DNA of 64,000 bases from an uncultured delta proteobacterium (GCA_963812015.1 CAWETI010000002.1:608001-672000), one strand, 5' to 3'; shown: positions 24,200 to 44,938, counted from the stretch's first letter. Translations and numbers: made by a program. Notes: a model not told the origin generated them from the letters alone.

Positions 24200-24284
24200 C
24201 AGTTATACCGCCTAGTTACTTTATTATTGTGTAAAAAAAATGCTATAGTGTATCCGCCCCTGGGAATGGGGATATCAAGATCCT

Positions 24285-24409
24285 GATTTTTACCTCGCCC
24301 ACCAGCGGCATGCCGATCTCTCCCTGCCCGTTGATCCAAAGCGTCGGTCCAGGGTTTTCTGGCCGAGGATCTCGGCTACAAGTTGGTCTCACGGCCCCAC
24401 CTGAAAGTC
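24285..24409 (-). pseudogene. Degenerate fragment of a second wza-like gene
   Basis: DFQVGP*DQLVAEILGQKTLDRR-(fs)-INGQGEIGMPLVGEVKI aligns with DYTVGPEDLLEIGVYGQKELQRFVRVNGSGDITMPLIGLVQV of the adjacent Wza. Confidence 0.65.
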
Positions 24410-24473
24410 TTTATCGTCATCTAGGCTCAGATACGGGTGGCTTGAAAGGGTTTGCTATATCCTGACAGATTGT

Positions 24474-25523: not shown

Positions 25524-25679
25524 GATAAATTCCCTATAATTTAAGTTTTTTTAACAGAGATTATGCGGCCGCCGTGGTTGCTTCTGTCTAAAAGAGCTAT
25601 CTGGATTATCTTATTCTGAAGCTTAAATCCGGAAACACTGGCGGCTGGCTACCGCCATAAAGGCCCTGAAAACGCTTAG

Positions 25680-26190
25680 TGGTATGGTTCCAAAGCCTCC
25701 TCGGTCAAATCCACCGCCACCGCCCCGCAAGTCCACTGCCACCACGAGGCGACGCTGGCCGTCTTTTTTCCGCAGGATGAAGCCTGTGGCCCCGGCCAGG
25801 GGGCCCCCGAGGATGGTCACCCGCCTCCCCTTCACCAACTGGGACCACAAGGATCAAGCGTCAGGTTGCTGGTCACCATCCTTTGGAGTGAGTATACCGT
25901 CTCCGCCGGTACCGGGGTGCACTGTCGCTTAAGTCCCAAAATGCGATCACGCCAGTATTTTTAAGAATATCGTAATAGACCGGGGTGCTGAGGTCGGCAT
26001 GGACGAAGAGATAGCCCGGGAAGAGGGGGACTTCCAGGAGGCGGACCCGGTCCTGGCGGTGACTGCGCGCGGTGATGCGGGGGAGAAAGACCTCCAGACC
26101 CTGATTTTGCAGGTGCCTCTCCACCTTAGTTTCCTGGCGGCTGTAAGTGTGGATCACAATACCAGGCAAGGTCTCCGTGGGTAACTGCAC
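25680..26190 (-). pseudogene. Frameshifted UpxY/RfaH-type NusG-family antiterminator
   Basis: AWY-(fs)-VIHTYSRQETKV...FLP...PLFPGYLFV (NGN domain). The KOW motif GRRVTILGGPLAGATG is in a different frame (ORF 25623-25850). Confidence 0.8.
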
Positions 26191-26548
26191 TGCTCTCAAT
26201 AGGCACCTTGGACACTCGCTTCGATTTGTATTCAGCCATTTTCCAAACAAATTGCCGTCCCGTAAATTACATAAGTAGTTTACCAATTACCTCAATAATT
26301 TAATATGTTATGGCTCAAACCATAACGTTCGGCCCCGATGACCTCCCCGAAACCCCTATCGGAAAAGTCGCCCTCCCCGGTTTTGCCCCCCCAACCCTGG
26401 AGCGACTATGGCTTCACCGGCTAACCCCCTGCTCTACCGGGAGGTGATGCGCCGCTCTTTCAATAATCACCACTGATGCCCCCGGCAGGACAATGAGCCT
26501 CAGAAATCTTGGCCCAGCAGCTCAGAATGACAAGAAAGAATTGAGGAC

Positions 26549-27736
26549 TTAAGTATTCCGCAAATATTTATTGTCCGGCGGCCGCCCATAATTGAGAGAC
26601 AAATCCCCTACCCGGGCCATGGCCTCATTCTCGCCGGCAAAGCGGGCTGGGAACTCCACCGACAGCCGCCGGGAAATCTCCCCCAGGGAGCTTTGGCCGT
26701 CCATCAACTCCAGGATGAACCGGTCGATGCGGCCATCCTCTGTCAGAACCGGCACATGGGTAGAGGCCCGTTGCTTCAGGCTAGCTGGAGATACGGGGGC
26801 GCCTAAAAAAGTGGATTGCCGGAACTCGGCCTTTAGCCGCCCCGGCTGGCTCTCGTCCAGGATGCGGGTATCCCAGCGCCAGAGATAATCATCTCCCACC
26901 AGGTTGGCGGCCAGGTCTACCGATACCACATCCCCCGCTTCCAAGTTCATGGGTTCCGGCCAGGGGAAAAAATATTTGGCATAAACCCCGGGGCTTTCGC
27001 CGGGGCGGTTGGAAAAGGATACGCCCGGAGCCAGAAGGGCGTCGAACCAGAGAACGATGCCGTGGGCCGTGCCGGCCCGGTCCGTGGTCCACGCTAATTC
27101 GCACCGGGCATCGGGCTCCGCCACCGTATAAAAATTTAAGGTCCACCAGCATTGGGCCGGGGCCAACATATCCTCCGGCGTTACCCGGGCCGAGTAACTT
27201 TGATTAATGGCCAGTGGCCACGCCGCCCGCAGATCCAGCCCGTAAACATCTTCCTTCCAGGCGGAGGTATGTTTCTCATACACCTCCGGCAATGCCACCA
27301 CCGCGGCCCAGAGGGTATCCTCTTGGGGAATCAAACGCCCTCCGGGAGCCAGAAAACGCTGCCGGGCATCCACAATAGTCGGGATTATTTGTTGAAAAAA
27401 AGGCAGCGACCCGTGCAGGTCGGAAACGATGACGTCCACCGGTTCCGGCAGGGTAATCCGGGTGGAAACGTCCTGGATGAAATGAATCCGCTCCGCGTAG
27501 CCGTTGGCGGCCGCCAGGTCCCGGGCCAGATCGAGGAGATCGCTGGGGTCGATGGCATAAACCCGGGCCGCGCCGCACTGGCAGGCCAACAGGGCGAACA
27601 TTCCGATGCCGGTGCCGATGTCCAGCACCACCGCCCCGGGGCTGACGGCTGAGCGCAGCGCCTCCCGGTAACCGGCCGTCCGCTTGGCATCGAGGATCAT
27701 CTGGCCGTAGCCATCGAGGGAATAAGTATGGGTCAT
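26549..27736 (-). CDS. PRMT-like (protein-arginine methyltransferase fold) SAM methyltransferase with a C-terminal RRE/PqqD-like segment
   Basis: MILDAKRTAGY, VVLDIGTGIG, GAARVYAID, VDVIVSD, RFLAPGGRLIP, HGIVLWFD; tail FILELMDGQSSLGEISRRLSVEF. ATGA overlap with the kinase gene. Confidence 0.8.
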   Translation of the reverse strand: MTHTYSLDGYGQMILDAKRTAGYREALRSAVSPGAVVLDIGTGIGMFALLACQCGAARVYAIDPSDLLDLARDLAAANGYAERIHFIQDVSTRITLPEPVDVIVSDLHGSLPFFQQIIPTIVDARQRFLAPGGRLIPQEDTLWAAVVALPEVYEKHTSAWKEDVYGLDLRAAWPLAINQSYSARVTPEDMLAPAQCWWTLNFYTVAEPDARCELAWTTDRAGTAHGIVLWFDALLAPGVSFSNRPGESPGVYAKYFFPWPEPMNLEAGDVVSVDLAANLVGDDYLWRWDTRILDESQPGRLKAEFRQSTFLGAPVSPASLKQRASTHVPVLTEDGRIDRFILELMDGQSSLGEISRRLSVEFPARFAGENEAMARVGDLSLNYGRPPDNKYLRNT

Positions 27737-28773
27737 ATTGACAGGCTTGATTTTTCCGCCCGATAGTCGCCGCCGGCTTGGAGATGGGAAAAATCCTCCA
27801 GGATGCTCTCGCAGAGTTGGTTCAGGTAGGCGGGTCCGGCCCGGGGAATCAGGCGGCGCACCGGCACCCGCTCCAGCAGGCGGCCCAGGACCTCGAACTC
27901 ACGGGCCCGCAGCTCCTTATCCAAAAACTTCGACCCATAGGTGTTGGCTATCAGCAGCAGCAGCCTTTCCTTCCCCGGGACCTCTTCCACCCGGGGACCG
28001 GCATCCTCCTGCCGCGCCCCCAGGATATAAATGGCCCCTAAGGGGAGAGGCCTAGACTGAAAGCAGTAGCCGGGGGCGGTAAGGTTGAGCCACCGCTTGT
28101 CCCATTCGGGATCCAAGGTATTATCCGAGATGACCGGAGGCAGGGCGGTGGGGGAGCCATAGAGATACACCACCGATTGGGGCCAGAGACAGACATTGGG
28201 GTCCCCCGGGAGCACCCAAAAGGTATCATCCTCCTCCTTAAGAACCGTGAGGTCATCGGTGAGCACCGGGTAGCCCAGGCGGGCAAAGGCCGCGGCGGTG
28301 GTGGATTTGCCGGCGCCCGGAAACCCCAGCACCGTTAGGGCGTGTCCTCCCGCGGCCACGGCGCTGCCGTGCAGACAGGGCGTCCCCCGCCAACGCAGGA
28401 GAATCCCCAGGACCGGGCCCAACAGGTAGGTGGAGAGATATTCCTGGGTCGCGCCTTCGGGCCCCGAGACCCAAAGACGCGACCCCGCAGAGTCCATGAC
28501 GAACTGGCAGCCGTCGCTGTATCTCAGCCGGAAGTATCGGCCTCCGGCCACCTGCCAGGCTCTATAGACGGGTTCGCCGCCCTGGTCATCCTCGAAGCCG
28601 GTTTGCCACAATTCCTGGGGCATCTCCAGGAACCGGCGCCACCATTCCGCCGTGCCCTCATGGCATATTTCCACATCTACCGCCGCTGGCTCCGCCTGGG
28701 CCACTAGACCGGGAATAGGCCGGTCGGACCTTAGCCGCAAGCCGAAGATGTTATAAAACAAAGACGCAACCAT
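27733..28773 (-). CDS. HPr-kinase-like P-loop kinase of the type found in lasso clusters
   Basis: LHGSAV, Walker A GFPGAGKSTT, VLTDD, PLPLGAIYIL; first gene downstream of the precursor. Confidence 0.85.
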   Translation of the reverse strand: MVASLFYNIFGLRLRSDRPIPGLVAQAEPAAVDVEICHEGTAEWWRRFLEMPQELWQTGFEDDQGGEPVYRAWQVAGGRYFRLRYSDGCQFVMDSAGSRLWVSGPEGATQEYLSTYLLGPVLGILLRWRGTPCLHGSAVAAGGHALTVLGFPGAGKSTTAAAFARLGYPVLTDDLTVLKEEDDTFWVLPGDPNVCLWPQSVVYLYGSPTALPPVISDNTLDPEWDKRWLNLTAPGYCFQSRPLPLGAIYILGARQEDAGPRVEEVPGKERLLLLIANTYGSKFLDKELRAREFEVLGRLLERVPVRRLIPRAGPAYLNQLCESILEDFSHLQAGGDYRAEKSSLSI

Positions 28774-28802
28774 GAAAAGCGATGATTCGGCCCTTTGTAA
28801 TG

Positions 28803-28949
28803 CTAAGCTGCAGTTTTATTACGACCAGTCCAACCGCCAGTGTCAGTATTACCATTTCTACCTGTAGCCATGGTAATCTGCTTGACATTGCCGTAATCCA
28901 TCACCTGGGGGGGGTGATAAGCCAGCCGTTCTTTTTTCGTGGATTTCAT
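28803..28949 (-). CDS. Lasso peptide precursor (48 aa): MKSTKKERLAYHPPQVMDYGNVKQITM|ATGRNGNTDTGGWTGRNKTAA
   Basis: AGGAGG RBS 6 nt before the ATG; leader motif YxxPxV..G....T(-2); core starts at Ala with Asp at position 9; lies among B1/B2/C genes. Confidence 0.93.
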   Translation of the reverse strand: MKSTKKERLAYHPPQVMDYGNVKQITMATGRNGNTDTGGWTGRNKTAA

Positions 28950-29157
28950 GATGGTCCTCCTGTCGTGACATGATTTTGGGGTTTAGTCCTGTGAGTTGAT
29001 ATGTTAACATTCCGCATCTGCCGTAAAATTTATGATGATTTCACGGGCCAGATGAAAAAAACCTCTTCCCGAGTTTAACCCCCCAAAGCCTCTCCTTTTT
29101 ATTACCTAATTGCCTTGAAAAAAGCAAGTCTTAATGGTGGTGGCTGTTATCCTAAGT

Positions 29158-31002
29158 TTAGGAGCGAATCACTGATTGCAGAAATTCCTCCAGACCCTTG
29201 ATGCAAGTCATATCGCGGTAGAGCCTGCCCTTAGTTGCTGCAATTTTCTGGCTTATTTGCTCCCGCCAGCTCTCGTCCAGGGCAAGACGCGCGGCCACCG
29301 CCACGTATTCTTCCAAGCTGGTGACGATGGTCTCCGTGACGCCCATCATGGTCAAAAAAGCCATACTGTGCCTTCCCCGCATAAGATTCCCGGGCAGCGT
29401 AACCACGGGCAGGTCACAGGCAAGGGCTTCTAAGGTGGTGTTGCCTCCGGACCATCCAATGCTGTCCAGGAAGATGTCGGACAGGCAATTCAGGGCGTGA
29501 TATTGCGTTGAATCCAGCCGCGGTAAAAGGGTAACATAATCTTCGGAATTTAAGCCATAATTCCCGAATGCCTGATGCAGACGCCGCTGAAATTGGTTAT
29601 TTACGAAAACCGAGTCTCCTTGAATAAAGGCGAATTGACAGTTGCCTACTGCTTTGGCGAGTTGCGGGAAGACGGCATCGTATTGCGGCAGATACTTGAA
29701 TAGGGACTGTGGGCAAAAAAATAAAATACCATTCGACTTAAGGTCGAAACTGGCCCGGCTCAGCCCAGTCTCCGGGAATTCCCGGGGGCTGTAAAATGTG
29801 GAGAGATTGGGCAATTTCACCAGTTTTTCGGTGTAATGCGCTTCAGCTCCCGGAGGCTCCATCAGCTCGCTACTCAGATAGTAGTCCATGGTAGGTAAGC
29901 CTGAGGTAACCGGGTGGCCCCAGGACACGCACTGGATAGGCGCAAGCTTTAATGAAGCCAGCCTGAGAGTCAGGTAATCCATTCCCACTTCAGGATAGAT
30001 CAATATGTGCAGCCGGTCCCCGCGGATCATCCGTGCCAGTTTTGGTAATGAAAAAACGTCTTCCACCAGGCGGACAAAACTCTGCCTCGCCTGCCCGGTT
30101 TCATTGTCCTTTCTAGTTCCTGTGTGGTAGCCGTATAGCTGAAACCGCCGTTTATCTAAATTCTCCCCCCAACCCTTTGCGAGAATCTTCCAAACGGAGT
30201 GTTCCCATAAGAAACCTGAGACAATCCCGACTCGGCAAGGTTCGACCGGATTGGAGGGCGGCATCGAAGGGGCTTGGGCCCATTTCGGGTATCTGGCTGC
30301 CTGAATGCGACAAACCAATTTACCATAGAGACTCTGAAGATCGCGGTCATTGAGTCCCTGATATGCCAAGTAAAAAGGAAAGCAACTCCCCACAGCCTGG
30401 GCCGCCTCCTTAATCTCGGCCGAACTATCTAGCCTGATGGTTTGGCACAGATGCTCCAGTTCCTTTTGATAGCATCTCCGGGTTTGCGCAATCTCGCTCG
30501 CCTGACCGTAAAGAATAGGAGTTTGAGCTATACAAAGATTGAGCCGGGCTCTCACCGAGTCAGGTTTTATAGCCAGGGCCTTTTTTAAACAGTCGAGTGC
30601 CTCTTGCTGTTCTCCTAGGTTAGAGAGAATTGCCCCCAATCTATTGTAATGCTTGGCATTATGAGGATCAAGTTCTATCGCCTTTCTATAGCAAGCGATG
30701 GATAAGCTGGCTAACTTTGGATCTTCGGTTGCCAAAAGAGCCTCCCCTAGTTTACAGTGGGCAGAAACCTTCTTCGGTTTAATTTTAATAGCTTGGCTAT
30801 AACAACGCATAGCCTCAGATAATTTTGCCAGCTCCATTAAAACATCGCCCAGACGAACAAAGGTATCATAGGTTGGTTCTATTTCAATTACTTCGCGGTA
30901 AGTTTTCTCAGCTTCTCGAAAGTTTCCGGATCGGCAGTCTTGCAGAGCTTTTTTTAATCTTTCTCTTATATCAGGTGATAGTTTCCTAATTTCGTGGGAC
31001 AT
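29158..31002 (-). CDS. TPR + GT41-family (OGT/SPINDLY/HMW1C-like) protein glycosyltransferase
   Basis: N-terminal TPRs; RVGIVS..LWEHSV, YPEVGMD, LAPIQCVSWGHPVTSGLPTMDYYLS, QSLFK, DIFLDSIGWSGGNTTLEAL. Confidence 0.88.
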   Translation of the reverse strand: MSHEIRKLSPDIRERLKKALQDCRSGNFREAEKTYREVIEIEPTYDTFVRLGDVLMELAKLSEAMRCYSQAIKIKPKKVSAHCKLGEALLATEDPKLASLSIACYRKAIELDPHNAKHYNRLGAILSNLGEQQEALDCLKKALAIKPDSVRARLNLCIAQTPILYGQASEIAQTRRCYQKELEHLCQTIRLDSSAEIKEAAQAVGSCFPFYLAYQGLNDRDLQSLYGKLVCRIQAARYPKWAQAPSMPPSNPVEPCRVGIVSGFLWEHSVWKILAKGWGENLDKRRFQLYGYHTGTRKDNETGQARQSFVRLVEDVFSLPKLARMIRGDRLHILIYPEVGMDYLTLRLASLKLAPIQCVSWGHPVTSGLPTMDYYLSSELMEPPGAEAHYTEKLVKLPNLSTFYSPREFPETGLSRASFDLKSNGILFFCPQSLFKYLPQYDAVFPQLAKAVGNCQFAFIQGDSVFVNNQFQRRLHQAFGNYGLNSEDYVTLLPRLDSTQYHALNCLSDIFLDSIGWSGGNTTLEALACDLPVVTLPGNLMRGRHSMAFLTMMGVTETIVTSLEEYVAVAARLALDESWREQISQKIAATKGRLYRDMTCIKGLEEFLQSVIRS

Positions 31003-31116
31003 TCAGTTACCTTTTCTATTTAAATTGCATTGAATCTTTTTGCAACATGGGCTGTTAAATAAAGTGCCACCGGAGCTCAATTAGTCTTTTTATGGTCTCC
31101 AACTAGATCAGGATAA

Positions 31117-32949
31117 TCAACACTCAAATTTTGCCAGCCAGTAATTGAGGCTTAAGGGGCGCAGGTTTATCCACAGCCGACCCGGGTCGGTCTCGGTCGT
31201 CGCCGGGGGAACCGCGGCGCGCCGGACATAGGCGGCCAGCCCGTCGCATGGCTCAAAGTTATCCAGCCACCGGGAATCGGGGCGGCGGACCAGGGCCAGT
31301 TCGGGATGGTCGACCATGGGCGTTTTGGGACGGCGGCGGATAAGATCCGGCAGACGCTCCTTGGCCAGTTCCCGGAGCATGATCTTATCCACGCACCAGG
31401 GCAGTGGCGGCAGGCTCAGGGCGTAGGTGAGAAGCCGCACATCCAGCAGGGGATGGCGAAACTCCAGCGGCCCCCCCATAACCCCGGCGTCATACTCCAT
31501 TTCGAAACACCCTTGCAAAAAAGACCCGGCCAGAAAGGCGCAGGCTTCGGGGCGCACCGGGGGCTGGGGCGCCGACCTTCGCTTGAAAAGTTGCCACCGG
31601 GCAGGCAGGTCCAGCCGGGCGCTCAGGTCCGGGTCAAGCCACTGGGGGAACCCGTCCTCAGGCTGGCTCCGGCTGTTGCGAGTGCGCCAGCGATCCAGGG
31701 CGGTCCTGAAACCAACTTGCGGCATATGGCCGTAAAGGAAGAGACTGCGCCCCATTCCCGTTACCAGTGGGGCCAGATGCAGGCTCCGGGCCAACTTGTA
31801 GATATACGATTTGGAGGGGTAAAGAATCTCGTCGCCGCCATGGCCGGTGAGGACTACCCGGCTGTGGATAGCGGCCAGCTTGATCATGTCCAACCCGGCT
31901 GCTGCTCCACGGGGATCGTGGCAGGGCTCCGGTTCGCTCAGGTCGGCCTGGCGCTCAAACAGAGCATAATCATCCTGGGGCAGAAACTCGATAGGGACTT
32001 GCAAATGCCTGGCCACCGCCCCGGCAAAGAAGCGCTCTTCATCTGGGATCAACCGATCGAACACTGCCGTCTGGCAGTGCAGGTCGAAGCGGGGTGACCG
32101 TTCAATCAGCAGTTCCCGGGCCACAGCCGTCACCAGAGGAGAATCCAGCCCGCCGCTGAGATATACCCCTACCCTGTCGGTGCGTAAGCGGTCCGCAACC
32201 GCCTCCCGCAGCAACTCCTGGAACCGGTCCACATAGTCCCGCTGGCGCCGGTAGTGCACGGGGCCTTCCTGAGGCAGGCGCCAGTAGCGCTGCACCTTTA
32301 CGGCGCCCCCTGCCTCCCAGGTCTGGGAGTGGGCCGCGGGCAGGCGCCGGATGTCGACAAAGCTCGTGGTAGCCGGGTCCTGGTTGAATTCAAAGAGGAG
32401 GAAATCGGCGATGACCAGGTCATTGAGCCGGTCGGAAACGTCCGGGTGCTGCCGGATGCAGTTCAGGGTATTGCTGAAAACCAGGCTACGGCCCGTTTCG
32501 GCATAATAGAAGGGCTTGACACCGAAATGATCCCGGGCGCAGAACAGCCGCCGGTGGCGTCCATCCCAGAGGGCGAAGGCAAAATCTCCGATCAGATGTT
32601 GGAGACAGTCGTCCCCCCAGACCTGGTAGGCATGAAGGATCAATTCGACATCGGGGGAATTTTTGGGAACGGCGCAGCCCCGGGCGGCAAGCTGTTTGAC
32701 GAGATCGGCGCGGCCGTCGATACGGGCGTCCGCGGTGATCCACACCTGGCCGTCCAGGGTCAAGGGCTGACAATCCGGCCGGGTGTCATCCACCGTGCGC
32801 AGCAGGGCATGCCCGAGGCCTACTGTGCCCTGGCTCCAGGTCTCCTGGGCATCGGGGCCGCGGAAGGCCAGGAATTCCGTCAGGCGCCCCAGCAACTCCC
32901 GATCCACCGGTTGCCCGTCCAGATTGATGAGGCCCACGATGCCGCTCAT
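31117..32949 (-). CDS. Lasso peptide cyclase (asparagine synthetase-like, protein C)
   Basis: MSGIVG (Ser replaces the Ntn catalytic Cys), RGPD, GDFAFALWD, ARDHFGVKP, LSGGLDS, TGHGGDE, HPLLDVRL. Confidence 0.93.
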   Translation of the reverse strand: MSGIVGLINLDGQPVDRELLGRLTEFLAFRGPDAQETWSQGTVGLGHALLRTVDDTRPDCQPLTLDGQVWITADARIDGRADLVKQLAARGCAVPKNSPDVELILHAYQVWGDDCLQHLIGDFAFALWDGRHRRLFCARDHFGVKPFYYAETGRSLVFSNTLNCIRQHPDVSDRLNDLVIADFLLFEFNQDPATTSFVDIRRLPAAHSQTWEAGGAVKVQRYWRLPQEGPVHYRRQRDYVDRFQELLREAVADRLRTDRVGVYLSGGLDSPLVTAVARELLIERSPRFDLHCQTAVFDRLIPDEERFFAGAVARHLQVPIEFLPQDDYALFERQADLSEPEPCHDPRGAAAGLDMIKLAAIHSRVVLTGHGGDEILYPSKSYIYKLARSLHLAPLVTGMGRSLFLYGHMPQVGFRTALDRWRTRNSRSQPEDGFPQWLDPDLSARLDLPARWQLFKRRSAPQPPVRPEACAFLAGSFLQGCFEMEYDAGVMGGPLEFRHPLLDVRLLTYALSLPPLPWCVDKIMLRELAKERLPDLIRRRPKTPMVDHPELALVRRPDSRWLDNFEPCDGLAAYVRRAAVPPATTETDPGRLWINLRPLSLNYWLAKFEC

Positions 32950-34538
32950 TTTGTGCCCTTTATCGCCCGGTATTTAGCTTTAAAAGCGAGACGTATGTGA
33001 TACCAGGCCCGCTGAACTGCGTTCCCGATATCCCGAGGGATCATCTTAATGGCGGCCCAGACTTCCTGTCTAACCTCGGCCCCTTGCCGCTTTTTCAAGA
33101 AGAGCCGGGCCAAGCGGCTGCGGACCACACAGCCGTCATCACCGGCAGCGATACCCATACGCAGCGATATTATAGCAGTATCAATCTGTCCTTGTGCAGC
33201 ATAAAGCCTACCTAAAATCGTATGTATCCGGAAATGATCGGGGTCCATGAGGAGGGCGCGGTCATTGTGGGAAAAGATGGGAGCCCCTATGGGCAGATAG
33301 CCCCGCAGGCTCAAGTGCAGCGATCTTTCGTACGCCTCAATAGCCTCAGGACCTCGACCTCGCTTCGACAGAACCTTTCCCAAGGTGCGCCAGGCATCCA
33401 CCAGATGGTCGTCAAGTTCCAAGGACTTGCGCAGCCAGGCCTCTGCCTCCTGCCACCGCGTGAAACGGGTCGCCAGTTGTCCCAGGCCGAAATGGGCGTA
33501 AGCGTCTTCCGGATTCAAAGTTAGGGTGCGCCGGTGCTCCTGCTCGGCCTCTGGGTAGCGCCGGTCCCAGTAATACCAGAACCCGCCGCTGCCATAAGCG
33601 GTGCCGTAAGCAGGGTCAAGTTCCCGAGCCCGCCGGTGGCACTCCCGGGCGTCGGTTGGTCTCCCCATATCGGCGTAAGCGCCTGCCAGGAGGAATTCGA
33701 GGGCAGGATTGTCCGGGAGAAACTCTCTGGCCTGAAGATAGGTTTGCACAGCCTGGGGCAGGTTCCCCCCAGTCTTGGCTCGGGCTCCCTCCCGCAGCAG
33801 GGTCATCCCTCGCAGAAATGGCTCGTGATCTCGAACCCCATCCAGGCGCCGGGCCAATTCATCGCCCAGATATTTCCACTGCAATGGGGTAAAGCCTCCT
33901 TCCACCGAATAGGCGATGGTCACCAGTTCGGCCTGGATGCCCATGTCCTTGAGGCCGGTCGCCAAAGCGTCGGGCCAGCACCAGGGAAGTCCCCGATGTT
34001 GGTCGCTGGAGTGGCAGGCCTTGGGAATCACCATATAATCCACGTCGATATCTAATAGGACCTTTTCGGTTATCAGGGGCAGGCCCTGCAACGTGCACAC
34101 CCGCAAGGGCCTCCCCAAAATTGCGCCGGCAATCAGATCTCTTTCCGCCTTGAGGGGATGCGGCTTGCCGGGATATTTTGCCAAAATTTTTTGCAAACTC
34201 CGTACCAAAGGCTTGCGGCTTCCGGCATCCCCCAAGGTCCGATCAGGGACCACCCAAAAGATTTCTCTGACCATGCCTTCCTTCAAGGCCTGGCAGATAA
34301 AGTTGCCAATATTGAGGGAAGACCGGTCTGCGCACCAGCTCAGGTCATCATGGGCGTCCACGTGGACCAGAATTTTCTCACGGACTCCGGCATCCTTCCA
34401 AACAAAATAGGCCTGGTCATGGTTTTCCATGAGATGGACACGCTTCAGAAAGGGTTCTACCTGGCTTAAGGCTGACTTTTGCATATCTTTACTGGTCTGC
34501 TGCCCCGATAATTGTGGCTGCATAATGACCGGCCCCAA
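32946..34538 (-). CDS. UPF0489 / arginase-like metallohydrolase domain fused to TPRs
   Basis: ENHDQAY..W, HVDAHDD (DxHxD), LDIDVDY (DxDxD), VTIAYSVEGGFTP, then TPR repeats. ATGA overlap with the cyclase gene. Confidence 0.75.
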   Translation of the reverse strand: MGPVIMQPQLSGQQTSKDMQKSALSQVEPFLKRVHLMENHDQAYFVWKDAGVREKILVHVDAHDDLSWCADRSSLNIGNFICQALKEGMVREIFWVVPDRTLGDAGSRKPLVRSLQKILAKYPGKPHPLKAERDLIAGAILGRPLRVCTLQGLPLITEKVLLDIDVDYMVIPKACHSSDQHRGLPWCWPDALATGLKDMGIQAELVTIAYSVEGGFTPLQWKYLGDELARRLDGVRDHEPFLRGMTLLREGARAKTGGNLPQAVQTYLQAREFLPDNPALEFLLAGAYADMGRPTDARECHRRARELDPAYGTAYGSGGFWYYWDRRYPEAEQEHRRTLTLNPEDAYAHFGLGQLATRFTRWQEAEAWLRKSLELDDHLVDAWRTLGKVLSKRGRGPEAIEAYERSLHLSLRGYLPIGAPIFSHNDRALLMDPDHFRIHTILGRLYAAQGQIDTAIISLRMGIAAGDDGCVVRSRLARLFLKKRQGAEVRQEVWAAIKMIPRDIGNAVQRAWYHIRLAFKAKYRAIKGTK

Positions 34539-34584
34539 GTAATTGGCAAAGCTCCGGCGACTGTCAAGCCTCCAAAGGGCGAAC

Positions 34585-35088
34585 TTAAGGAGCCGCCGGG
34601 GGGATTATTTCCCGAGGGAAAGGGGGAAACCGCCCGGCCACGTTCGCACCGTCATTCAGCGGCTGGCCCTGGAACTCCACCCAGGCGTGGGCTTCCAGGC
34701 GGCTCGGCTCAGGCTTAACGCCGATGCGCAGCTCTCCGGCAAGCCCCTGGCGGCGCAACAGCCACCAGAGGACCAGGGATCGGGGGAGACAGGTGGGCCG
34801 AAAGAGGCCGTAACGGGCTGCAACCTGCACCAGGCGGGCGGTGGCCCGAGCCTGATCCAAGTCCGACTTTAGGGCAGACAGGTGCGGGGCCAGGGCCTCT
34901 CCCTGGTTCAACCTGGCCTGGAGCCGGCAGAGTCCCCAGCAGCGCAGTCCTAAGGCCACCAGGGGGAGCGCCAGGGAAGCCTGGACCAACAACCACCGCT
35001 CGGCCCCGGAAAGCTGCCATGCTTTCTTTAGATTAATTTTCGTGGAGTTCCAGTAATCCACGCTGCACCATCTTGGACACAAAATCAT
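34585..35088 (-). CDS. Lasso peptide leader protease B2 (transglutaminase-like)
   Basis: TCLPRSL, LRIGV, LEAHAWVE (Cys-His-Glu); true start is probably the GTG near 35062. Confidence 0.92.
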   Translation of the reverse strand: MILCPRWCSVDYWNSTKINLKKAWQLSGAERWLLVQASLALPLVALGLRCWGLCRLQARLNQGEALAPHLSALKSDLDQARATARLVQVAARYGLFRPTCLPRSLVLWWLLRRQGLAGELRIGVKPEPSRLEAHAWVEFQGQPLNDGANVAGRFPPFPREIIPPAAP

Positions 35089-35317
35089 CTAGGTCTTGCC
35101 GCAGCAAAGGTGGGTCAACCTCATAGTCTGCCAGCAACTTCTGGTAGGCCGCCTCGATATTCTCGCTGGAGGTCAGAGCCTGGCACATGCGCGTCCCCAC
35201 GCCATCCAGACCGTGGTAGCATTCGGTGTCGAGATTGAGGAGCACAGATTCGTTTTCGAAGGTGCGCATTAAAACATTCACGGGGAAGGTAACCCGCATG
35301 CTCATGGAAAAAGGCAT
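35033..35317 (-). CDS. PqqD-family RiPP recognition element (lasso B1)
   Basis: ESVLLNLDTECYHGLDGVGTRM...LLADYEVD..LRQDLDDFVSKMVQRGLL. Confidence 0.93.
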   Translation of the reverse strand: MPFSMSMRVTFPVNVLMRTFENESVLLNLDTECYHGLDGVGTRMCQALTSSENIEAAYQKLLADYEVDPPLLRQDLDDFVSKMVQRGLLELHEN

Positions 35318-35534: not shown

Positions 35535-36683
35535 ATGTTTCTACCCATGGGCAGTCTCCCAGAGTCTTGGCTGGCGGCATTTACTCTTCTCCGCCCCTTG
35601 TTGCCAGTGATAGAGGAGAGGGATCCTCCGGGGGGGGTAACCACCCTGCGGACTCTGGATGCCACGTGGGTAGAACATTGGCGTGCCTTGCAACTCACCC
35701 CGTTGCTGTACCGCGAACTGGCGCGCCGAGGCTGGGATGCGCAGATTGCGCCCCCATGGTGGTCCACCCTCCGGGATGGCTACGTCCTGGCCTTACAGTC
35801 TGCCTTCCAAGAAGAAGAAGAGATCAAGGAACTCCTGCGAGCCCTAACCAAAGCGGGGGTCACCCCGATTCTTCTTAAAGGCGCCGATCTGCGCCTGCGA
35901 GTTTACGGCGACCCTGCTGTTCGGCCCATGGCTGACCTGGATATCCTGGTGTCGCCGAGCCAAGTCGACCGGGCTCGGGGGGTGCTCGAATCCATGGAGT
36001 TCAGGCTGCAGGCCCAGTGCTTTGATCCACGTCCCGGCTGGCGGGCTCGCTTTCGCAACGAACTTCACTTCGCTCCCCCCCCGGGTTGGCCTCTCCTGAT
36101 CGACCTGCACTGGCAATTATATTATATCTTCCGCTTTTATCACTTGCCTTATACCCGCTTGCAGGAAAAAGCCATCACTTCTGAGTACCAGGGATACCTC
36201 GTAAAGCTACTTTGCCCAGAACACCTAGTGATCCACCTTGCCCTCCACACCTACGCCGAACCCGACAGCGTCCTAAAAATCATTGATCTAGAAGGGGCAC
36301 TTTCCCTTCCCCTAGACTGGCCCTTTTTCCTGGAAGAAGTTGCTCGTTTCAACTGCCAGAGGCCTCTGTATATTATCCTCCTGGGGATATCCCGGCTTTT
36401 TCCCCAAAAAGTGCCTCCCTTTATCCTTGATCACCTGGGCCAATCCCGGCCCGCGTGGGTTGAAAAACTGGTCCTCCGAGAGTCCCTGGGCTACCTGACT
36501 GTTCATGCCGCCACCCTGTACCACCATAGGCGACTCTCAGACTGGTTTTTTTACCTGAAGGCTTTAACCTGGCCGCAAGAAGAATACCTGACAGCAATGT
36601 ATGGAATGCCTGACCGCATTCGTTTTTTTCAACAAATCCTGGCCCACCTGTTTTCCTACGCCAAAAACTGGGGGCCGCATTAA
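35535..36683 (+). CDS. Nucleotidyltransferase family protein (lasso-cluster type)
   Basis: PILLKGADL, YGDPAVRPMADLDILV, IDLHWQL, PEHLVIHLALH; divergent from B1. Confidence 0.88.
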   Translation: MFLPMGSLPESWLAAFTLLRPLLPVIEERDPPGGVTTLRTLDATWVEHWRALQLTPLLYRELARRGWDAQIAPPWWSTLRDGYVLALQSAFQEEEEIKELLRALTKAGVTPILLKGADLRLRVYGDPAVRPMADLDILVSPSQVDRARGVLESMEFRLQAQCFDPRPGWRARFRNELHFAPPPGWPLLIDLHWQLYYIFRFYHLPYTRLQEKAITSEYQGYLVKLLCPEHLVIHLALHTYAEPDSVLKIIDLEGALSLPLDWPFFLEEVARFNCQRPLYIILLGISRLFPQKVPPFILDHLGQSRPAWVEKLVLRESLGYLTVHAATLYHHRRLSDWFFYLKALTWPQEEYLTAMYGMPDRIRFFQQILAHLFSYAKNWGPH

Positions 36684-37841: not shown

Positions 37842-39971
37842 TCAGTTAAATTTAGGATTTAATTTCTGATAACCTTTTTCCAATTCTTGATTCATGAGCT
37901 GGATTTGATTGGTTTTTTGATAACATCGGCAGAGAGAAATATTGATCTTCTCGTCTTCCGGGCTGATTTTTTCGGCTTTTTTCAGTTCAGGGATGGCCCG
38001 CAAATATTCATGGGTCTTTTCGAAGCTCATTCCTAATATCGCATGGACATTGATATCATCTTCCTGACAATTCAGTTCCAAGGACTTATAGACCGCCTTG
38101 ATGGCTTGCCGGTAGTGTTTCTTTTCGAATTGATACCTGGCCATGAAGAGATGAAAGCGGCCGTCATGGGGAACTTTCTTTAAGGCTTTCCGAATAATAG
38201 CCAGGGCCTGACGGCTCTTTTTCTTTTCTTCATAATAGGAAACCAATCCCCTCATTTCTTCTTGACCATCTTTATCTAATAGATAATTACCCAAAACTAA
38301 TATATCCATTTCCGTGCTTAAAAAAACCTCGATCGCGTCAGCAGGTGTTTCGACAATCGGCATCCCACGGATATTAAATGAAGTATTTAAAATGACAGGC
38401 ACACCGGTTATTTGATAGAATTCATTTATCAAATCATAATAAAGTTCATCATCAGCTCTGGTTACGGTCTGCACCCTGGCGGTGCCGTCTACATGAATAA
38501 CCGCAGGTATCTCTTTGCCTTTATCCTCTTTTGTGGTCGCCACCAGCAACATAAAAGGGCTGGGGCAAGAAAGATCAAAGAATTCGGTGGCACATTCCAA
38601 AAGGATGCTGGGGGCATAGGGGCGAAAACTCTCCCGGTGCTTCACCTTTTTGGTTACCGACTCTTTTATCCCGGTCTGCCTGGGGTCGGCCAGAATGCTT
38701 CGGTGACCTAATGCCCTGGGGCCGAATTCAGCACCTCCTTGAAACCAGCCAACGATCTTGCCGGCCGCAATATACTGAGCGGTTCTGCTGAGGAGTTCGT
38801 TTCTGGTCAAAGGGTTTTTTACTATCTTATGCTTGCGCAAAGCGGCCCGAATCTCTCCTTTCTTGTATTTTCTCCCAAGATAAACATTTTTCAGAGGAAA
38901 TCTACTCTTTCCATCGGCTAATTTATGCCAGCCGTATAAGGCGCAACCGATGGCTATCCCATCATCCGTTGCGGCCGGCTGAATAAAAATATTTTTAAAT
39001 GGAGTACTATCCAATATCTTCTTATTCGCAACCGAATTCAGGCCGGCACCTCCGGCTATACAAAGATTCTCTGATCCCGTCATTTCAAACAGCCTATTCG
39101 CCAGGCAAATCATGCCTTTTTCCAGTTCTTCCTGTGCTTTGTAGGCCAGATTTTTGTAAAATTGAGTAAAGTTATCGTTTTTCGGCTTTACGATTGGCAC
39201 CAAGTAGCCTTTGTTGGGCTTGGCAATTTTGAGGTCTAACGCCAGCTGGGCAAATCGGCTATTTTCTATATGGTGATCAGTAATTTCAATGATATCCGGC
39301 CAATCTTTCACAGGTTTGCCGTAGGCGGCCAGTCCCATAGTTTTGCCCGCCTCGGTAACAATAATGCCCGATGACGGATGGTATTTTTCCATTGAAAAAC
39401 CTAATACAATAGAGATGAAATTATATATATAAGCTAGCGAATAATAGGCTTTCATTTGAGGATTTTTGGCCGACCATAACTTCTGATAATTTTTTAGTAT
39501 CTGTTCTATGTTACTGCCTTTGGCGTAGAAACCGCTTTCCGCCTCTGTCCCATTCGATGTTTCACTACCGAATACGTCAGCAACTAGCACCGCACTTTCA
39601 CGAAAAGGAGAGCAAAAATAAGAACTATAGGCATGGGCCAGATGATGTGACGGGTGGGGCAGGCATTTAATTTTAGATTTATCTTTAATCGGTAAGAGAG
39701 ATTTAAGGCTCTCTAAATTGACAGGTTCAACGGCATTATCAGCTACGATTAAATCCACATCATCCAGACCGATATTTGCCGAGTTCAGGCAGTAGGTTAT
39801 GGAGCGCATGGGGGGTATTCTGCTATTCTGGTCTTTCTTGCGTACCTGAAAATATAAGGTTGAGTTCTTGACTCCATCCAGCCGCTCTTCAGCAATGGCA
39901 AATAAGATCCTGCCGTCCTTGAGCAGGCAGGCGCTCCGATCATGACTTAGATTTATTCCTAGGATATGCAT
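37842..39971 (-). CDS. Carbamoyltransferase (NodU/CmcH/TobZ family) with C-terminal TPRs
   Basis: MHILGINLSHDRSA, EERL, HHLAHA, GKTMGLAAYG, AGGAGLNSVAN, EFGPRALGHRSILADP, KHRESFRPYAP, HVDGTARVQ, LNTSFN. ATG 39971 has an AAGGA RBS; the tracked 5' extension is IS sequence. Confidence 0.92.
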   Translation of the reverse strand: MHILGINLSHDRSACLLKDGRILFAIAEERLDGVKNSTLYFQVRKKDQNSRIPPMRSITYCLNSANIGLDDVDLIVADNAVEPVNLESLKSLLPIKDKSKIKCLPHPSHHLAHAYSSYFCSPFRESAVLVADVFGSETSNGTEAESGFYAKGSNIEQILKNYQKLWSAKNPQMKAYYSLAYIYNFISIVLGFSMEKYHPSSGIIVTEAGKTMGLAAYGKPVKDWPDIIEITDHHIENSRFAQLALDLKIAKPNKGYLVPIVKPKNDNFTQFYKNLAYKAQEELEKGMICLANRLFEMTGSENLCIAGGAGLNSVANKKILDSTPFKNIFIQPAATDDGIAIGCALYGWHKLADGKSRFPLKNVYLGRKYKKGEIRAALRKHKIVKNPLTRNELLSRTAQYIAAGKIVGWFQGGAEFGPRALGHRSILADPRQTGIKESVTKKVKHRESFRPYAPSILLECATEFFDLSCPSPFMLLVATTKEDKGKEIPAVIHVDGTARVQTVTRADDELYYDLINEFYQITGVPVILNTSFNIRGMPIVETPADAIEVFLSTEMDILVLGNYLLDKDGQEEMRGLVSYYEEKKKSRQALAIIRKALKKVPHDGRFHLFMARYQFEKKHYRQAIKAVYKSLELNCQEDDINVHAILGMSFEKTHEYLRAIPELKKAEKISPEDEKINISLCRCYQKTNQIQLMNQELEKGYQKLNPKFN

Positions 39972-39989
39972 ACTTTTCCTTTTTCGATG

Positions 39990-41612
39990 CCTTAATCCGA
40001 GATTATGCCGCATACATAGCTGTTTCTGTCTCAACGAGGTTTTGGAGCCTCTTTGGCCGAGCAAAATCTCCCAAACGGTCCTCTTCTCGAGGCCAATTCT
40101 TCTCAGAGGTGGGAAAATAGCACAAATTTGGGCGGAAAGTCAATTTTCCCCAGATTTCGGGCATACTAATCCCTCGGCGACCAGATGCTAACTGGCTGGG
40201 AAGCCTAAGGACCCCAGGCCAGCACTGCCCGACAATAGTGTGCCAGAGGAAAGGCGGAGGCCACATGGACATACCATCTCCGGGCATGGTAAGAAAGCCT
40301 GGCGCCCACTTTGATTAATCGCTTGATCAGCCACTCCATGGACCGTTTCACTTCTTCACCCCAAACATTAGGACTGCCGGATCATATGCAGAAGGTTGTA
40401 GACCAGAACCCCCATCTGTAGCCTGGCCTGGTTGGCCTCGAACCCTTGGCAGCTGGTTTTGTCCCGCCGAAGAATGTTCTTCCCTTCCTTGATACGGTTT
40501 TCTATCTCGGCCCGGCCATTATAGACCTTGATCACCTTGCCGGCAGGTAGCCTGGAGTTGTTGATCACAAAGCCGATCCTGGGGAAAAGCTCGCCCCGGT
40601 GCCACTCGATCTTGGCCACTACCCGGCGAGGCCGGCTCCAACTCTTGGCCTGGTAGTGGAGGTCAACGATTTTGACCTGAATGCCGCTCTGGGGCGGTCG
40701 CCCGACCGGACGACCAAGATGAGGCGCCACCAACCTATCCAGGTTCTTATTTGACGGCAACCGAATGAAATATGTCATACGGTGTTCTTCGCAATACTCG
40801 TAGGCCTCCGGGTTGGCAAAGGCAGCATCGCTACGCAGCCAAAAGAGCCGGAACCAGGGGGGGTAACGCTCCACCAGGGGAGTAATAAATGGCAGAGTGC
40901 CGTCGGCGGAATGGACGTTCCCCGATCTCAGCTTTGCCATCAGACAAACGCCCTCGCTGGCAAAGCAAAAAAGCGGATGGAAACAGTTCTTGCCAAAGTG
41001 GCCATTGTAGGCGACGCCCTCCTGATTGCCATGCACCGGGTCCTCGGTGGAATCCAGGTCGATGATCAACCGCTTTTTGTTCTTCCTCCTTAACAAGGTA
41101 TCAGTGGACCGGGGCAGGGCGGCTTCCAAGACCTGAAGCCCAGCCTCGTTACCCAGGATGTCATTCTCCAACCGGGAGAGCATGGACTGGCTGGCTCCAG
41201 TCTCATGGCCCTTATCAAGAGTAAGCCTGAGGGCTGGATCGATGCGGAGAAAATCTGCATCGTTACAATCTTCATAGCCCGCAGCTATTTGGTAGACTCT
41301 TTGACGCACCATCTAAACCAATGAGTGTTTCGTATGAGTAGGTGATCTCAAATCTTCCAGATAATCTTTCATGGGGTCAATGATCATGAAACGTTCATCT
41401 ACCTCACGCAGTAGGATGAACCCAGTGTGGGAGGATATGGTGGCGCCCTGGAAATCTATCATGATGGCTCGGTTAAAATCCGGCCGGATCACCTCATTCC
41501 GGCTTTCACCACTATCGAGCATCTTTGCGACCCCCGATTTGCTAATATTTGCTGCTTATATCATATAGTTAGGTTGATTTCTATCAGTTTTTGCCGAATA
41601 ATCCAGGTTAAA
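39990..41612 (-). mobile_element. IS1380-family element, transposase with in-frame stops
   Basis: DFQGATISSHTG.LLREVDE...HSLV*MVRQRVYQIAAGYEDCNDAD...DLDST.DP.HG.QEG...YNGRAEIENRIKEGK; related ends TTAATCCGAGATTAT / TTAACCTGGATTAT. Confidence 0.88.
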
Positions 41613-43120: not shown

Positions 43121-44938
43121 TTATCGATAAGAACTCGCCTGCATTTCAAATAACCGCGCATACTTACCGGCCATCTGAATCAACTCGTTATGCGTGCCGC
43201 TTTCGAGTATCCGCCCATTTTCCATGACAAAAATATAATCCGCCAGCCTGACCGTCGAAAAACGATGGCTGATGAGCAGAACCATGCGGTCTATAAACAT
43301 TTTCCGGAAGGATTGAAAAACCTCGTATTCCGCCCGGGCATCCATCCAGCTGGTGGGTTCATCCAAAATGATCAATTGGGCTTTGCGCAAGAAGGCCCGG
43401 GCCAGAGCCACTTTTTGCCATTCGCCCTGGCTGAGTTCTCCCTGGTCCTCAAACTCATGGCCCAAAACGGTCTCGTAGCCCCGGGGCAGCTTCTGAATAA
43501 AAATATCGGCTTGGGTCTGTCGGGCGGCACTGATAATCTTATTGTCGTGAGCAGGTAAACTGATGTCTCCCAGCCAGATATTTTCCCGCGCCGTCAGGCA
43601 GTAGCGGGCGTAATCTTGAAGGATAACGCTGATCTCTCGCCTTATGGCATCGGGATCAAACTGGCGCAAGTCAATACCGTCAATGGCTATATTGCCGCTT
43701 ACCGGATCATAGAGACGGCAGAGGAGCTTGATAAGAGTCGTTTTTCCCGACCCATTCTCTCCCACCAGCGCTACCATCTGGCCCGGCAAAATCTGAAGGT
43801 TGATATCCTCCAGGACGGTTCTCTCCGCTGTGGGGTAGTGAAAATTGACCCGTTCTAGCAAGATGCCTTCCTTTATGGGCCGCGGGAAAGCTGCCGGCGT
43901 GCGAGGCTCCACCAGCTTAGGCTTGAGATCGAGGAACTCGTTAAAGTTGGCGAGAAAGAGGTTATCCTCGTAGAGACTGGTCAGGCCGGTCCAGATCTCC
44001 TGGAGAGCCCCCTGACCCCGCTGAAAGGCCCCGTAATACATGACCATATCCCCGATGGTAATCATCCCCTCGACCGTCTGGTAGGCAACGAAAGCGAGGG
44101 CCCCAAAAATTGCCAACGTGGCGCTGGCTTGGGTGACCAAATCCGCCAGGGACCGTTTGGCCGAAATGTGCAGCTTTTCGATCCGGAGCTTCTTTCTTAA
44201 CTCCCGGAACCAACCCATGAAGAGCGGACCCAGGCCAAAGAGCCGGATCTCCTGAGCATGGCCGCCGTCGGTGAGCATCCAATGATAATAATGGGCCCGC
44301 CTTTCAGCCTGGGTGTGCTGGCTCTGCCAATCGTACATCTGCCTGGCGTATTTCAAGCGCATCAAAACCCCGGGGACCGTAGCCACAAACAGCATGGCGG
44401 CAACCCACCAGCGAAATGAGACCAGCAAACCGGCCAGGGCTAAAAGCGAGATGCCGCTTTGCCCCAGTTGCATCAGGCTGTCCATTATCCTCGTCGGCCT
44501 GTAGGTGGCCTCCTGCTGGGCCCGGTGCAGGGTGTCATAGTACTTGGGGTCTTCATAATATTCCAGGTCTACCGCCACCGACTTGCCATGGATGACATCG
44601 GCAACATGATCGGTGACCACCTGGGTCTGGGCTTCCTTGGCAATCTCAGTGAGAGAGCGGCAACAGGCGGCAAACAAGGCCACGGCAGCCGCCAGAACGA
44701 TGAGCAGGGTTACTTTTTTGAGGGAGTCGGTTTTGTCTGGCGAGAGCAGACCAGAGGTGACCGCATCGACAATCAGTTTCATCAGGTAGAGGGAGACCAG
44801 GGGGAGCAAGCCCTGGATCAGAATGAGCCCGAAATTTGCGACCGTCCATCCCGGGGCGCTTTGCCAGACTAGGCGCAAGGCCCGCTCCAGGTGCAGGCTG
44901 TGCCTGATCCTCTCTTTAAGGGTTTTGGCTGGTTGCAT
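43121..44938 (-). CDS. ABC exporter (TMD+NBD), candidate lasso peptide exporter
   Basis: N-terminal TMs; ALVGENGSGKTT, LSQGEWQKVALARAF, ILDEPT, ISHRFSTVR. Confidence 0.9.
   Translation of the reverse strand: MQPAKTLKERIRHSLHLERALRLVWQSAPGWTVANFGLILIQGLLPLVSLYLMKLIVDAVTSGLLSPDKTDSLKKVTLLIVLAAAVALFAACCRSLTEIAKEAQTQVVTDHVADVIHGKSVAVDLEYYEDPKYYDTLHRAQQEATYRPTRIMDSLMQLGQSGISLLALAGLLVSFRWWVAAMLFVATVPGVLMRLKYARQMYDWQSQHTQAERRAHYYHWMLTDGGHAQEIRLFGLGPLFMGWFRELRKKLRIEKLHISAKRSLADLVTQASATLAIFGALAFVAYQTVEGMITIGDMVMYYGAFQRGQGALQEIWTGLTSLYEDNLFLANFNEFLDLKPKLVEPRTPAAFPRPIKEGILLERVNFHYPTAERTVLEDINLQILPGQMVALVGENGSGKTTLIKLLCRLYDPVSGNIAIDGIDLRQFDPDAIRREISVILQDYARYCLTARENIWLGDISLPAHDNKIISAARQTQADIFIQKLPRGYETVLGHEFEDQGELSQGEWQKVALARAFLRKAQLIILDEPTSWMDARAEYEVFQSFRKMFIDRMVLLISHRFSTVRLADYIFVMENGRILESGTHNELIQMAGKYARLFEMQASSYR

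Follow-up and report, generated by a model that had tools for sequence, protein, structure and literature searches.

In a 64,000-nucleotide stretch of DNA from an uncultured delta proteobacterium (GCA_963812015.1, CAWETI010000002.1:608001-672000; hereafter the window), a 48-codon open reading frame (ORF) lies on the minus strand at 28803..28949 and, as translated from the window, encodes MKSTKKERLAYHPPQVMDYGNVKQITMATGRNGNTDTGGWTGRNKTAA. An earlier note had proposed that this frame is a hidden lasso-peptide precursor with an AGGAGG ribosome-binding site, and both the frame and the site were present as claimed. The Shine-Dalgarno (SD) sequence AGGAGG (28956..28961, minus strand) is followed by a 6-nt spacer and the ATG at 28949..28947; no in-frame ATG, GTG or TTG was found between the preceding stop codon and this ATG, and the stop codon of the ORF itself is at 28803-28805. 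The predicted leader comprises codons 1-27 (28869-28949) and the predicted core codons 28-48 (28806-28868), all on the minus strand. Two features that the note had read from the core, a single acidic residue and no Cys, were seen in the translation: the only acidic residue is Asp at core position 9 (ORF codon 36, 28842-28844), and the core contains zero Cys and zero Ser. Its C-terminus is Lys-Thr-Ala-Ala, with the Thr19 codon at 28812-28814, and the tail includes Trp13, Arg16, and Lys18. The calculated monoisotopic mass of the core is 2104.9998 in the linear form and 2086.9893 as the lactam. The genes on the minus strand are arranged in the order B1, B2, arginase-TPR, C, TPR-GT41, the 48-aa ORF, an HprK-related kinase, and a PRMT-fold methyltransferase. 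From the ORF, its leader motif, its homologues, matches to lasso hidden Markov models (HMMs), and a genome-wide motif control, we consider it probable that the 48-aa ORF serves as precursor (A) gene in a lasso-peptide cluster of the split-B type, with an Ala1-Asp9 macrolactam as the predicted product.

The three core enzymes of a lasso cluster lie within 6.4 kb on the same strand. B1 (35033..35317, minus strand), a PqqD-like leader-binding protein (RRE), matched Pfam PqqD at 8.9e-13, above the cut-off, and NF033536 at 3.8e-8, below it. B2 (34585..35088, minus strand), a transglutaminase-like leader peptidase, matched NF033537 at 8.1e-23 (81 bits against a cut-off of 33) and PF13471 at 2.2e-22. 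C (31117..32949, minus strand), an Asn-synthetase-like macrolactam cyclase, matched NF033535 at 4.5e-108 (362 bits against a cut-off of 525) and PF00733 at 8.5e-32. The whole genome gave a single B2 match and a single match to the precursor profile; the window cluster is the only one in this genome with a lasso B2.

Close homologues of the peptide were collected by a word-indexed protein search and by scans of genome_contigs and metagenome_contigs, which gave 18 distinct peptides (labels L0xx below denote related loci, and P0xxx homologous peptides). The protein search returned nine small proteins of 45-55 aa with E values from 6.5e-25 to 1.3e-7, all of them unnamed; public gene callers had called these homologues as unnamed hypothetical proteins. 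The contig scans gave three true loci in genome_contigs and seven in metagenome_contigs. Two other genome_contigs matches, L012 and L013, were spurious, with the motif inside long unrelated ORFs, and were excluded from all counts. A purine-rich SD-like run was found ahead of the ATG at the same place in 9/9 genes compared. Within codons 14-26, pairwise differences among nine genes numbered 8, 32, and 110 at codon positions 1, 2, and 3, respectively, and there were 99 synonymous and 40 non-synonymous codon differences.

An overlapping plus-strand 63-aa ORF, which the note had regarded as a shadow, is present at 28782..28973. The 48-aa frame is short and has no Pfam match, and the codon-aligned antisense frame is open in 8/9 homologues, so that a chance open frame, or a true gene on the plus strand, might be considered. 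Such an explanation is contradicted by the differences, which pile up on sense third codon positions; because the antisense third position is the sense first position, the least variable of the three, the plus-strand ORF is indeed best read as a shadow. As a chance control, all six reading frames of the entire 3.96-Mb genome, 7.9 million residues in total, were translated and searched for [YW]xxPx[LVIFA]xxxGxxxxxTx. Of the 19 matches, only the 48-aa ORF also had a Met upstream, a core length within 12-35 aa, and Asp or Glu at one of core positions 7-9. Considering also the SD-like run in all nine genes and the 126 profile matches of similar length described below, we judged a chance or plus-strand origin to be extremely improbable. 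A promoter and terminator scan around the precursor gene gave nothing exceeding the shuffled expectation, and an Rfam search of 26000-37000 gave zero matches.

The family combines a conserved leader with cores that vary. Y11, P14, V16, D18, Y19, G20, I25, and T26 were invariant in 18/18 close homologues, and a core start at residue 28 places them at Y(-17), P(-14), V(-12), G(-8), and T(-2). The RRE-binding motif has been described as [Y/W]xxPx[L/V/I/F/A] (PMC13381572), and YxxPxL, spanning -17 to -12, has been used to fix core position 1 (PMC10368454). The canonical leader recognized in the earlier note, Y-x-x-P-x-(L/V)...G...T(-2), was kept in all 18 homologues and in this published register. 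YxxPxV at -17 to -12 and Thr at -2 are independent anchors, and their agreement points to a cut after Met27. The note had also suggested looking for homologues with a conserved T(-2) and D9; Thr at -2 was found in 18/18 close homologues and in 124/124 members of the wider family, and Asp9 in 15/18 close homologues. In eight precursors (P0005, P0012, P0013, P0016, P0018, P0028, P0043, and P0057), the 8-residue leader motif Y-x-x-P-Q-V-x-D is tandemly duplicated, and the B1-binding motif is thereby present twice.

The gene order around the ORF is also retained. The note had named the lack of this ORF from homologous loci as evidence to the contrary; the ORF stood just upstream of the kinase gene, with the kinase gene directly downstream of it, in 10/10 related loci. 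C lay upstream of it in 8/8 related loci having upstream sequence, and in L009 the precursor ATG overlaps the stop codon of C. These loci had been retrieved with the peptide itself as the query, and hence a second search was anchored on the kinase. A kinase homologue at E ≤ 1e-10 was detected in 22/401 genomes sampled across the phylum. The closest match was a genome of the same genus, in which the kinase is 50% identical and the order is B1-B2-C-A-kinase-methyltransferase; this locus has its own, strongly diverged precursor at the equivalent place, with a predicted core showing Gly1, Asp9, and a C-terminal Lys-Thr. A motif-bearing small ORF was located ≤1 kb from the kinase gene in 12/26 kinase-anchored loci.

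To define the wider family, a profile of the 18 close homologues was searched against 1.84 billion representative proteins. It gave 126 matches at E ≤ 1e-3, of which 124 were 40-133 aa long, and all 124 could be anchored by the leader motif. In NCBIfam, the window peptide and its close relatives matched two families, NF033528 ('lasso_cyano'; 18/18 close homologues) and NF033521 ('lasso_leader_L3'; 14/18). A wider NCBIfam scan covered 124 sequences, namely the window peptide and 123 of the 126 profile matches; NF033528 was matched at E ≤ 0.01 by 97/124 (best 6.3e-15), NF033521 by 61, 'rhodolasso' by 4, and the albusnodin family by 1. No non-lasso family was matched in the NCBIfam scans of the close and wider sets. 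The window peptide itself scored 21.5 bits on NF033528 (E 1.6e-4) against a curated cut-off of 33; it is thus not a member by the curated rule and would not get its name from this model. Its position as a divergent NF033528 relative would explain why an annotation pipeline gives it no name. As judged from sequence, the window peptide adds a new and divergent member to a large precursor family that is uncharacterised and related to NF033528, with the broad consensus x-V-G-x-x-G-x-x-D-G-G ... K/R-T-x-x and at least 124 clusters at 50% identity. The B1/B2/C context, the conserved leader register, Asp9, synteny, coding-type substitutions, and sub-threshold HMM matches confined to lasso families all support the lasso precursor identity that had been proposed for the ORF.

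We then considered the ring. Of the 18 close homologues, 15 have their first acidic core residue at position 9, two at 10, and one at 11, and 17/18 have exactly one acidic core residue. In the 124 wider-family cores, it is at position 9 in 91, 10 in 19, 8 in 7, 7 in 6, and 11 in 1 (within core 7-9 in 104/124), with Asp as this residue in 116 cores and Glu in the other 8. At core position 1, Ala was counted 45 times, Thr 28, Ser 16, Asn 11, Gly 9, and Lys 7 among the 124. The subset with Asp9 follows the loose consensus x-V-G-x-x-G-x-x-D-G-G. Known lasso peptides are reported to have ring sizes of 7-9, and for pseudomycoidin a nuclear Overhauser effect between Ala1 HN and Asp9 Hb was reported (PMC6993621). 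Ala1-Asp9 is the best-supported reading of the ring in the window peptide. The earlier note had called a 9-residue ring the only option. Asp9 is indeed the sole acidic residue, but the exclusiveness of the claim was not supported, as it hinges on the predicted cut, and Asp10 and Asp11 occur in the same register in the family, so that some latitude exists in either the register or the ring size. The cores with Asp10 or Asp11 (including L010:10001-10147, L019:1170-1316, and P0003) are without the G3/G6 pattern and are Ser/Thr-rich; either B2 would cut one residue later in them, or their rings would exceed the 7-9 residues described so far. In L010, which has the Asp11 core, a radical-SAM gene stands at the place held by arginase-TPR in other loci.

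The steric plugs suggested earlier, W13 and R16, were not borne out by conservation: neither residue is conserved, and W13 occurs only in the window peptide and in P0001. P0001 is 98% identical to the window peptide and has a single difference, Arg16 to His, which represents natural variation at one of the two Arg, candidate arginase targets or plugs. Trp is present in 6/124 wider-family cores, and any aromatic residue after position 9 in 25/124. A real precursor could also yield something other than an Ala1-Asp9 threaded lasso, such as an 8- or 10-residue ring or an unthreaded branched-cyclic peptide. The Asp10 and Asp11 cores in the same register, the variable position 1, tails poor in bulky residues, and pseudomycoidin, which was reported as unthreaded when made without its kinase and NTP-transferase (PMC6993621), would fit such a product. 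In the window peptide, both anchors give one cut and Asp falls at 9, the modal family position, and the tail does carry Trp13, Arg16, and Lys18; we therefore regard this outcome as unlikely and retain the Ala1-Asp9 lasso as the predicted product.

The most conserved core feature after Asp9 is a near-C-terminal [K/R]-Thr, which was not mentioned in the earlier note. Thr is found at -2 or -3 from the C-terminus in 16/18 close homologues, and in the same-genus relative it is the final residue. Across the wider family, Thr lies within the last four residues in 97/124, and in these 97 it follows a Lys 60 times and an Arg 22 times. The gene next to the precursor (27733..28773, minus strand) starts 29 nt past the precursor stop and encodes a putative HprK-related P-loop kinase. 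Its matches are weak and P-loop-centred: TIGR04352 at 3e-8 (under the cut-off), PF07475 Hpr_kinase_C at 0.079, PDB HprK at 0.37, and an Atlas lead. The P-loop GAGKST is invariant in nine homologues, and an AlphaFold2 model of this protein, for which a 9-row alignment was used, had a mean predicted local distance difference test score (pLDDT) of 37.7, too poor for a fold test. Judging from the C-terminal Ser modified in paeninodin and pseudomycoidin (PMC8498205, PMC6993621), the near-C-terminal Thr is likely to be the target of this kinase. The C-terminal Ser acceptor itself, a trait of these two peptides, is lacking in the window peptide. Characterised lasso-type kinases are reported to act on a C-terminal Ser (PMC8498205), BsfA is phosphorylated on Ser3 (PMC10368454), and LppK did not phosphorylate an S3T variant (PMC13381572). 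Because most family tails are without bulky residues, a modified Thr would be at least as good a lock candidate as W13 or R16.

Three further genes of the cluster encode putative tailoring enzymes. The first (32946..34538, minus strand) has a peptide-arginase-like N-terminal domain (approximately residues 30-240) fused to TPR, with matches to NF052474 (1.8e-12) and PDB 8BRP (1.7e-7). The match of the N-terminal 240 aa to 8BRP, a 'peptide arginase', consists of four colinear stretches. The binuclear Mn site of OspR is described as having the six ligands His12, Asp39, His41, Asp43, Asp165, and Asp167 (PMC10028609), and these align to His40, Asp61, His63, Asp65, Asp165, and Asp167 of the window protein. 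The domain is under the family cut-offs (PF12640, 12.4 against 27 bits; NF052474, 47.4 against 350 bits). As all six OspR metal ligands are kept, an ornithine-bearing lasso peptide is plausible. Arginase-TPR is intact in the window, L009, and L016, where core Arg is found at 4 and 16, 13, and 5 and 19, respectively. It is absent or a remnant in L010, L014, L019, and the same-genus locus, where core Arg is lacking or stands only directly before the conserved Thr. This link between arginase-TPR and core Arg, three loci against four, is suggestive only. The arginase domain was found in 0/26 kinase-anchored loci from 400 sampled genomes of the phylum.

The second enzyme (26549..27736, minus strand) is a PRMT-fold methyltransferase and a clear PRMT homologue, although its 'double-E' loop is altered and ~95 aa are added at its C-terminus. 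It aligned with PRMT1 of the PDB at 1.3e-27 over residues 8-276 and matched PRMT_C at 1.4e-9, indicating a class I methyltransferase core and the PRMT beta-barrel. The two glutamates of the PRMT double-E loop hold the guanidinium group. At these positions the window protein has Asp and Gln; in six homologues the first is invariantly Asp and the second is Gln, Gly, or Arg. The gene is also present in clusters without core Arg, namely L019, L020, and the same-genus locus. Because of the altered double-E loop and this distribution, the target of the methyltransferase is probably not simply arginine. The last ~95 aa (26552-26836, minus strand) are conserved, and their sole Pfam match is a sub-threshold one to PqqD (E 0.07). 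From this match, the extension could be a built-in leader-recognition domain; an hhalign comparison of the C-terminal 95 aa with the B1 alignment of the cluster was negative, with a probability of 0.8%.

The third enzyme (29158..31002, minus strand) is a TPR-containing GT41 glycosyltransferase of the OGT/SPINDLY-like type (PF13844, 2.3e-18, 66 bits against a cut-off of 25; TPR families). Its catalytic part is closest to SPINDLY (PDB, 4.5e-51) and OGT. The gene stands between C and A in the window genome only and is absent there in eight related loci that include C; elsewhere, two copies lie downstream in L010, whereas none is present in L009 or the same-genus locus. The Asn17-Lys18-Thr19 sequon might suggest N-glycosylation, which is kept as a lead only, as the enzyme is nearer the O-transferases SPINDLY and OGT (E 1e-51). 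The N-glucosyltransferase matches were weaker (NF049992, 46 bits against a cut-off of 1000; an adhesin-type PDB entry, 3e-9). GT41 and a C-terminal N-x-T are both present in two loci and both absent in two others.

Other genes of the window may complete the pathway. A divergent NTP_transf_5 nucleotidyltransferase-like protein (35535..36683, plus strand; PF14907, 6.5e-38) occupies a PsmN-type position in related clusters, with homologues in L009, L010, and L019. An ABC exporter (43121..44938, minus strand; PF00005) is probably the D gene; it is 75% identical over 605 aa to an ABC gene ~420 nt upstream of B1 in L010, and in the window a carbamoyltransferase-TPR gene, together with transposase genes and fragments, stands between it and B1. 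The carbamoyltransferase (37842..40064, minus strand; PF16861, PF02543, and TPR) is of the NodU/CmcH type and is flanked by transposase genes and fragments, and no homologue of it was found in any related locus. Its membership of the cluster, as the third TPR-fused enzyme of the neighbourhood, is uncertain. When the TPR regions of these three proteins (arginase, GT41, and carbamoyltransferase) were compared, they showed generic TPR-level likeness only, with at most 28% identity. Transposase or integrase genes and fragments (rve, DDE_3/IS630-like, and DDE_Tnp_1_4) lie at 8813-9655, 20288-21316, 37118-37750, and 40368-41312, and interrupt the polysaccharide and lasso region. In L019:1-7062, the strand opposite to C-A-kinase-methyltransferase holds B1, B2, an arginase-TPR that is shortened, and another C gene truncated to a remnant of residues 1-231, and this locus looks like a rearranged or composite cluster.

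Downstream of the window cluster (21920-26286), a NusG/RfaH-like gene stands ahead of Wza-like and Wzc-like genes, accompanied by many glycosyltransferase genes. Polysaccharide export genes (Wza-like, Wzc-like) follow the lasso cluster in all three long loci: the window, L009:14266-17855, and L010:19293-20141. Clusters of the kinase type for peptides that are made ribosomally and modified post-translationally have been described as embedded in capsular polysaccharide loci in Bacillota (PMC13381572), so this association recurs in different phyla. Kinase, NTP-transferase, and RRE modules are reported there to occur without lasso enzymes, often in polysaccharide loci, and the window cluster is itself embedded in a polysaccharide export locus; in several kinase-anchored loci, moreover, neither C nor B2 was seen in the sequence retrieved. 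These observations would suit a peptide that is mainly a kinase and nucleotidyltransferase substrate and ends as a linear phosphorylated or glycosylated product, as in LPP, with the lasso enzymes irrelevant or inactive. Against this, B2 is above its curated cut-off, C is full length and near the precursor, separated here only by the GT41 gene and adjoining the precursor in related loci, and the sole conserved acidic residue is at the ring-forming position. In addition, no signal-peptidase-like family was matched among the 19 window ORFs scanned. A linear end product is therefore very unlikely, and the lasso pathway remains our reading of the locus.

On this basis, we propose a model for the biosynthesis. 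By inference from characterised lasso systems, B1 would bind the leader via Y11-x-x-P14-x-V16 (-17 to -12), and B2 would cut after Met27, with Thr26 at -2. The Ala1 amine freed in this way would then be linked by C to the side chain of Asp9. The resulting 9-residue macrolactam would carry a tail of 12 residues and, lacking disulfides, would be of class II type. The remaining steps are less certain. The HprK-like kinase might phosphorylate Thr19, in the context [K/R]-Thr-x-x, on the linear precursor, and a sugar may then be attached at this site by the NTP_transf_5 protein, the OGT-like GT41, or both. Arginase-TPR may turn Arg4 and/or Arg16 into ornithine, the PRMT-fold methyltransferase may methylate the product at no assigned site, and the ABC protein may export it. 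The phosphate on Thr, perhaps extended by a sugar, could serve as a lock, as hypothesised for pseudomycoidin. A product combining the Ala1-Asp9 ring, Arg-to-ornithine conversion, and a near-C-terminal Thr with a phosphate, possibly sugar-extended, in which the installed group locks the tail, is put forward as a tentative possibility.

Several points weigh against this interpretation. The window peptide reaches neither lasso precursor HMM cut-off (21.5 bits on NF033528, where 33 are required, and 15.7 on NF033521, where 19 are). Core position 1 is unusually variable in the wider family. Asp10 in 19/124 and Asp11 in 1/124 occur in the same register; rings of this size would exceed the 7-9 residues reported for known lasso peptides (PMC6993621), and the cleavage register may therefore not be universal. 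Unmodified pseudomycoidin was reported to be purified unthreaded (PMC6993621), and threading is thus not to be assumed. The kinase is assigned from weak P-loop-centred matches and its AlphaFold2 model is poor; moreover, characterised kinases are Ser-directed and the window core is without Ser, so that Thr phosphorylation would be a departure. Finally, the arginase and core Arg link rests on three loci with an intact arginase and four without.

By itself, the gene merely adds to the known lasso precursors, and its value is in what it anchors. It ties the window peptide to a large, semi-conserved, experimentally untouched precursor family, and it would define the substrate for four tailoring enzymes: arginase-TPR, the PRMT-fold methyltransferase, the OGT-like GT41, and the Thr-facing kinase. 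A lasso link for these four was not found in the open-access papers and bioRxiv texts searched, and by title and abstract none of these sources tied an arginase or ornithine to a lasso pathway. The words 'ornithine' and 'arginase' occur nowhere in a 2026 review (PMC13352647), and 'lasso' and 'TPR' nowhere in a 2025 peptide-arginase survey (PMC12703449). These additional enzymes suggest that lasso peptides may bear chemical modifications so far unobserved on them. If the model is true, the product would be a lasso peptide of a kind not yet described, and the broad family would be a large class locked by modification. The window peptide also offers a direct test of the idea, raised for pseudomycoidin, of a modification acting as a lock.

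From its gene content, the cluster predicts a new variant of the kinase-type lasso peptides, and pseudomycoidin (psm, Bacillus pseudomycoides; PMC6993621) is among the closest known systems. The predicted Ala1-Asp9 ring, the separate B1 and B2, the putative HprK-type kinase, the NTP-transferase-like protein, and the probable ABC exporter of the window would have counterparts there. In pseudomycoidin a C-terminal hydroxyl residue is reported to be modified in a tail poor in bulky residues, the modification being proposed as a lock. They differ in the acceptor, which is the C-terminal Ser in pseudomycoidin and, as a candidate, the Thr at -3 in the window core, which is without Ser. The psm cluster as described in that report lists no arginase-TPR, PRMT-fold methyltransferase, or GT41, and the phylum differs. 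Paeninodin-like leaders of Bacillota are usually of the WxxP type (PMC13381572), whereas the window leader has YxxP. In paeninodin and the proteobacterial polyphosphorylated lassos (PadeK, ThcoK, SyanK), an HPr-kinase homologue is reported to act on the still linear precursor, before ring closure (PMC8498205); these kinases recognise a C-terminal Ser, which the window peptide lacks, and the window tailoring set is much larger. BsfA/BsfK of Bradymonas sediminis (PMC10368454) represents a kinase lasso cluster of the deltaproteobacterial type, with YxxPxL at -17 to -12, where the window leader has YxxPxV. Unlike the window peptide, BsfA has Ile at -2 and a Gly1-Asp8 ring, and Ser3 is phosphorylated inside the ring. 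The peptide arginases OspR, FlmR, and OhkR (PF12640; PMC10028609, PMC9811515, PMC12703449) include in OspR the metal ligands shared with the window N-terminal domain, which differs from all three in being below the cut-offs, fused to TPR, and located in a lasso cluster. LPP (PMC13381572) resembles the window in its YxxP leader, RRE, HprK-like kinase (putative in the window), NTP-transferase, MsbA-like exporter, and polysaccharide loci. It is described there with a signal-peptidase-like leader peptidase and no cyclase, whereas the window cluster has both B2 and C.

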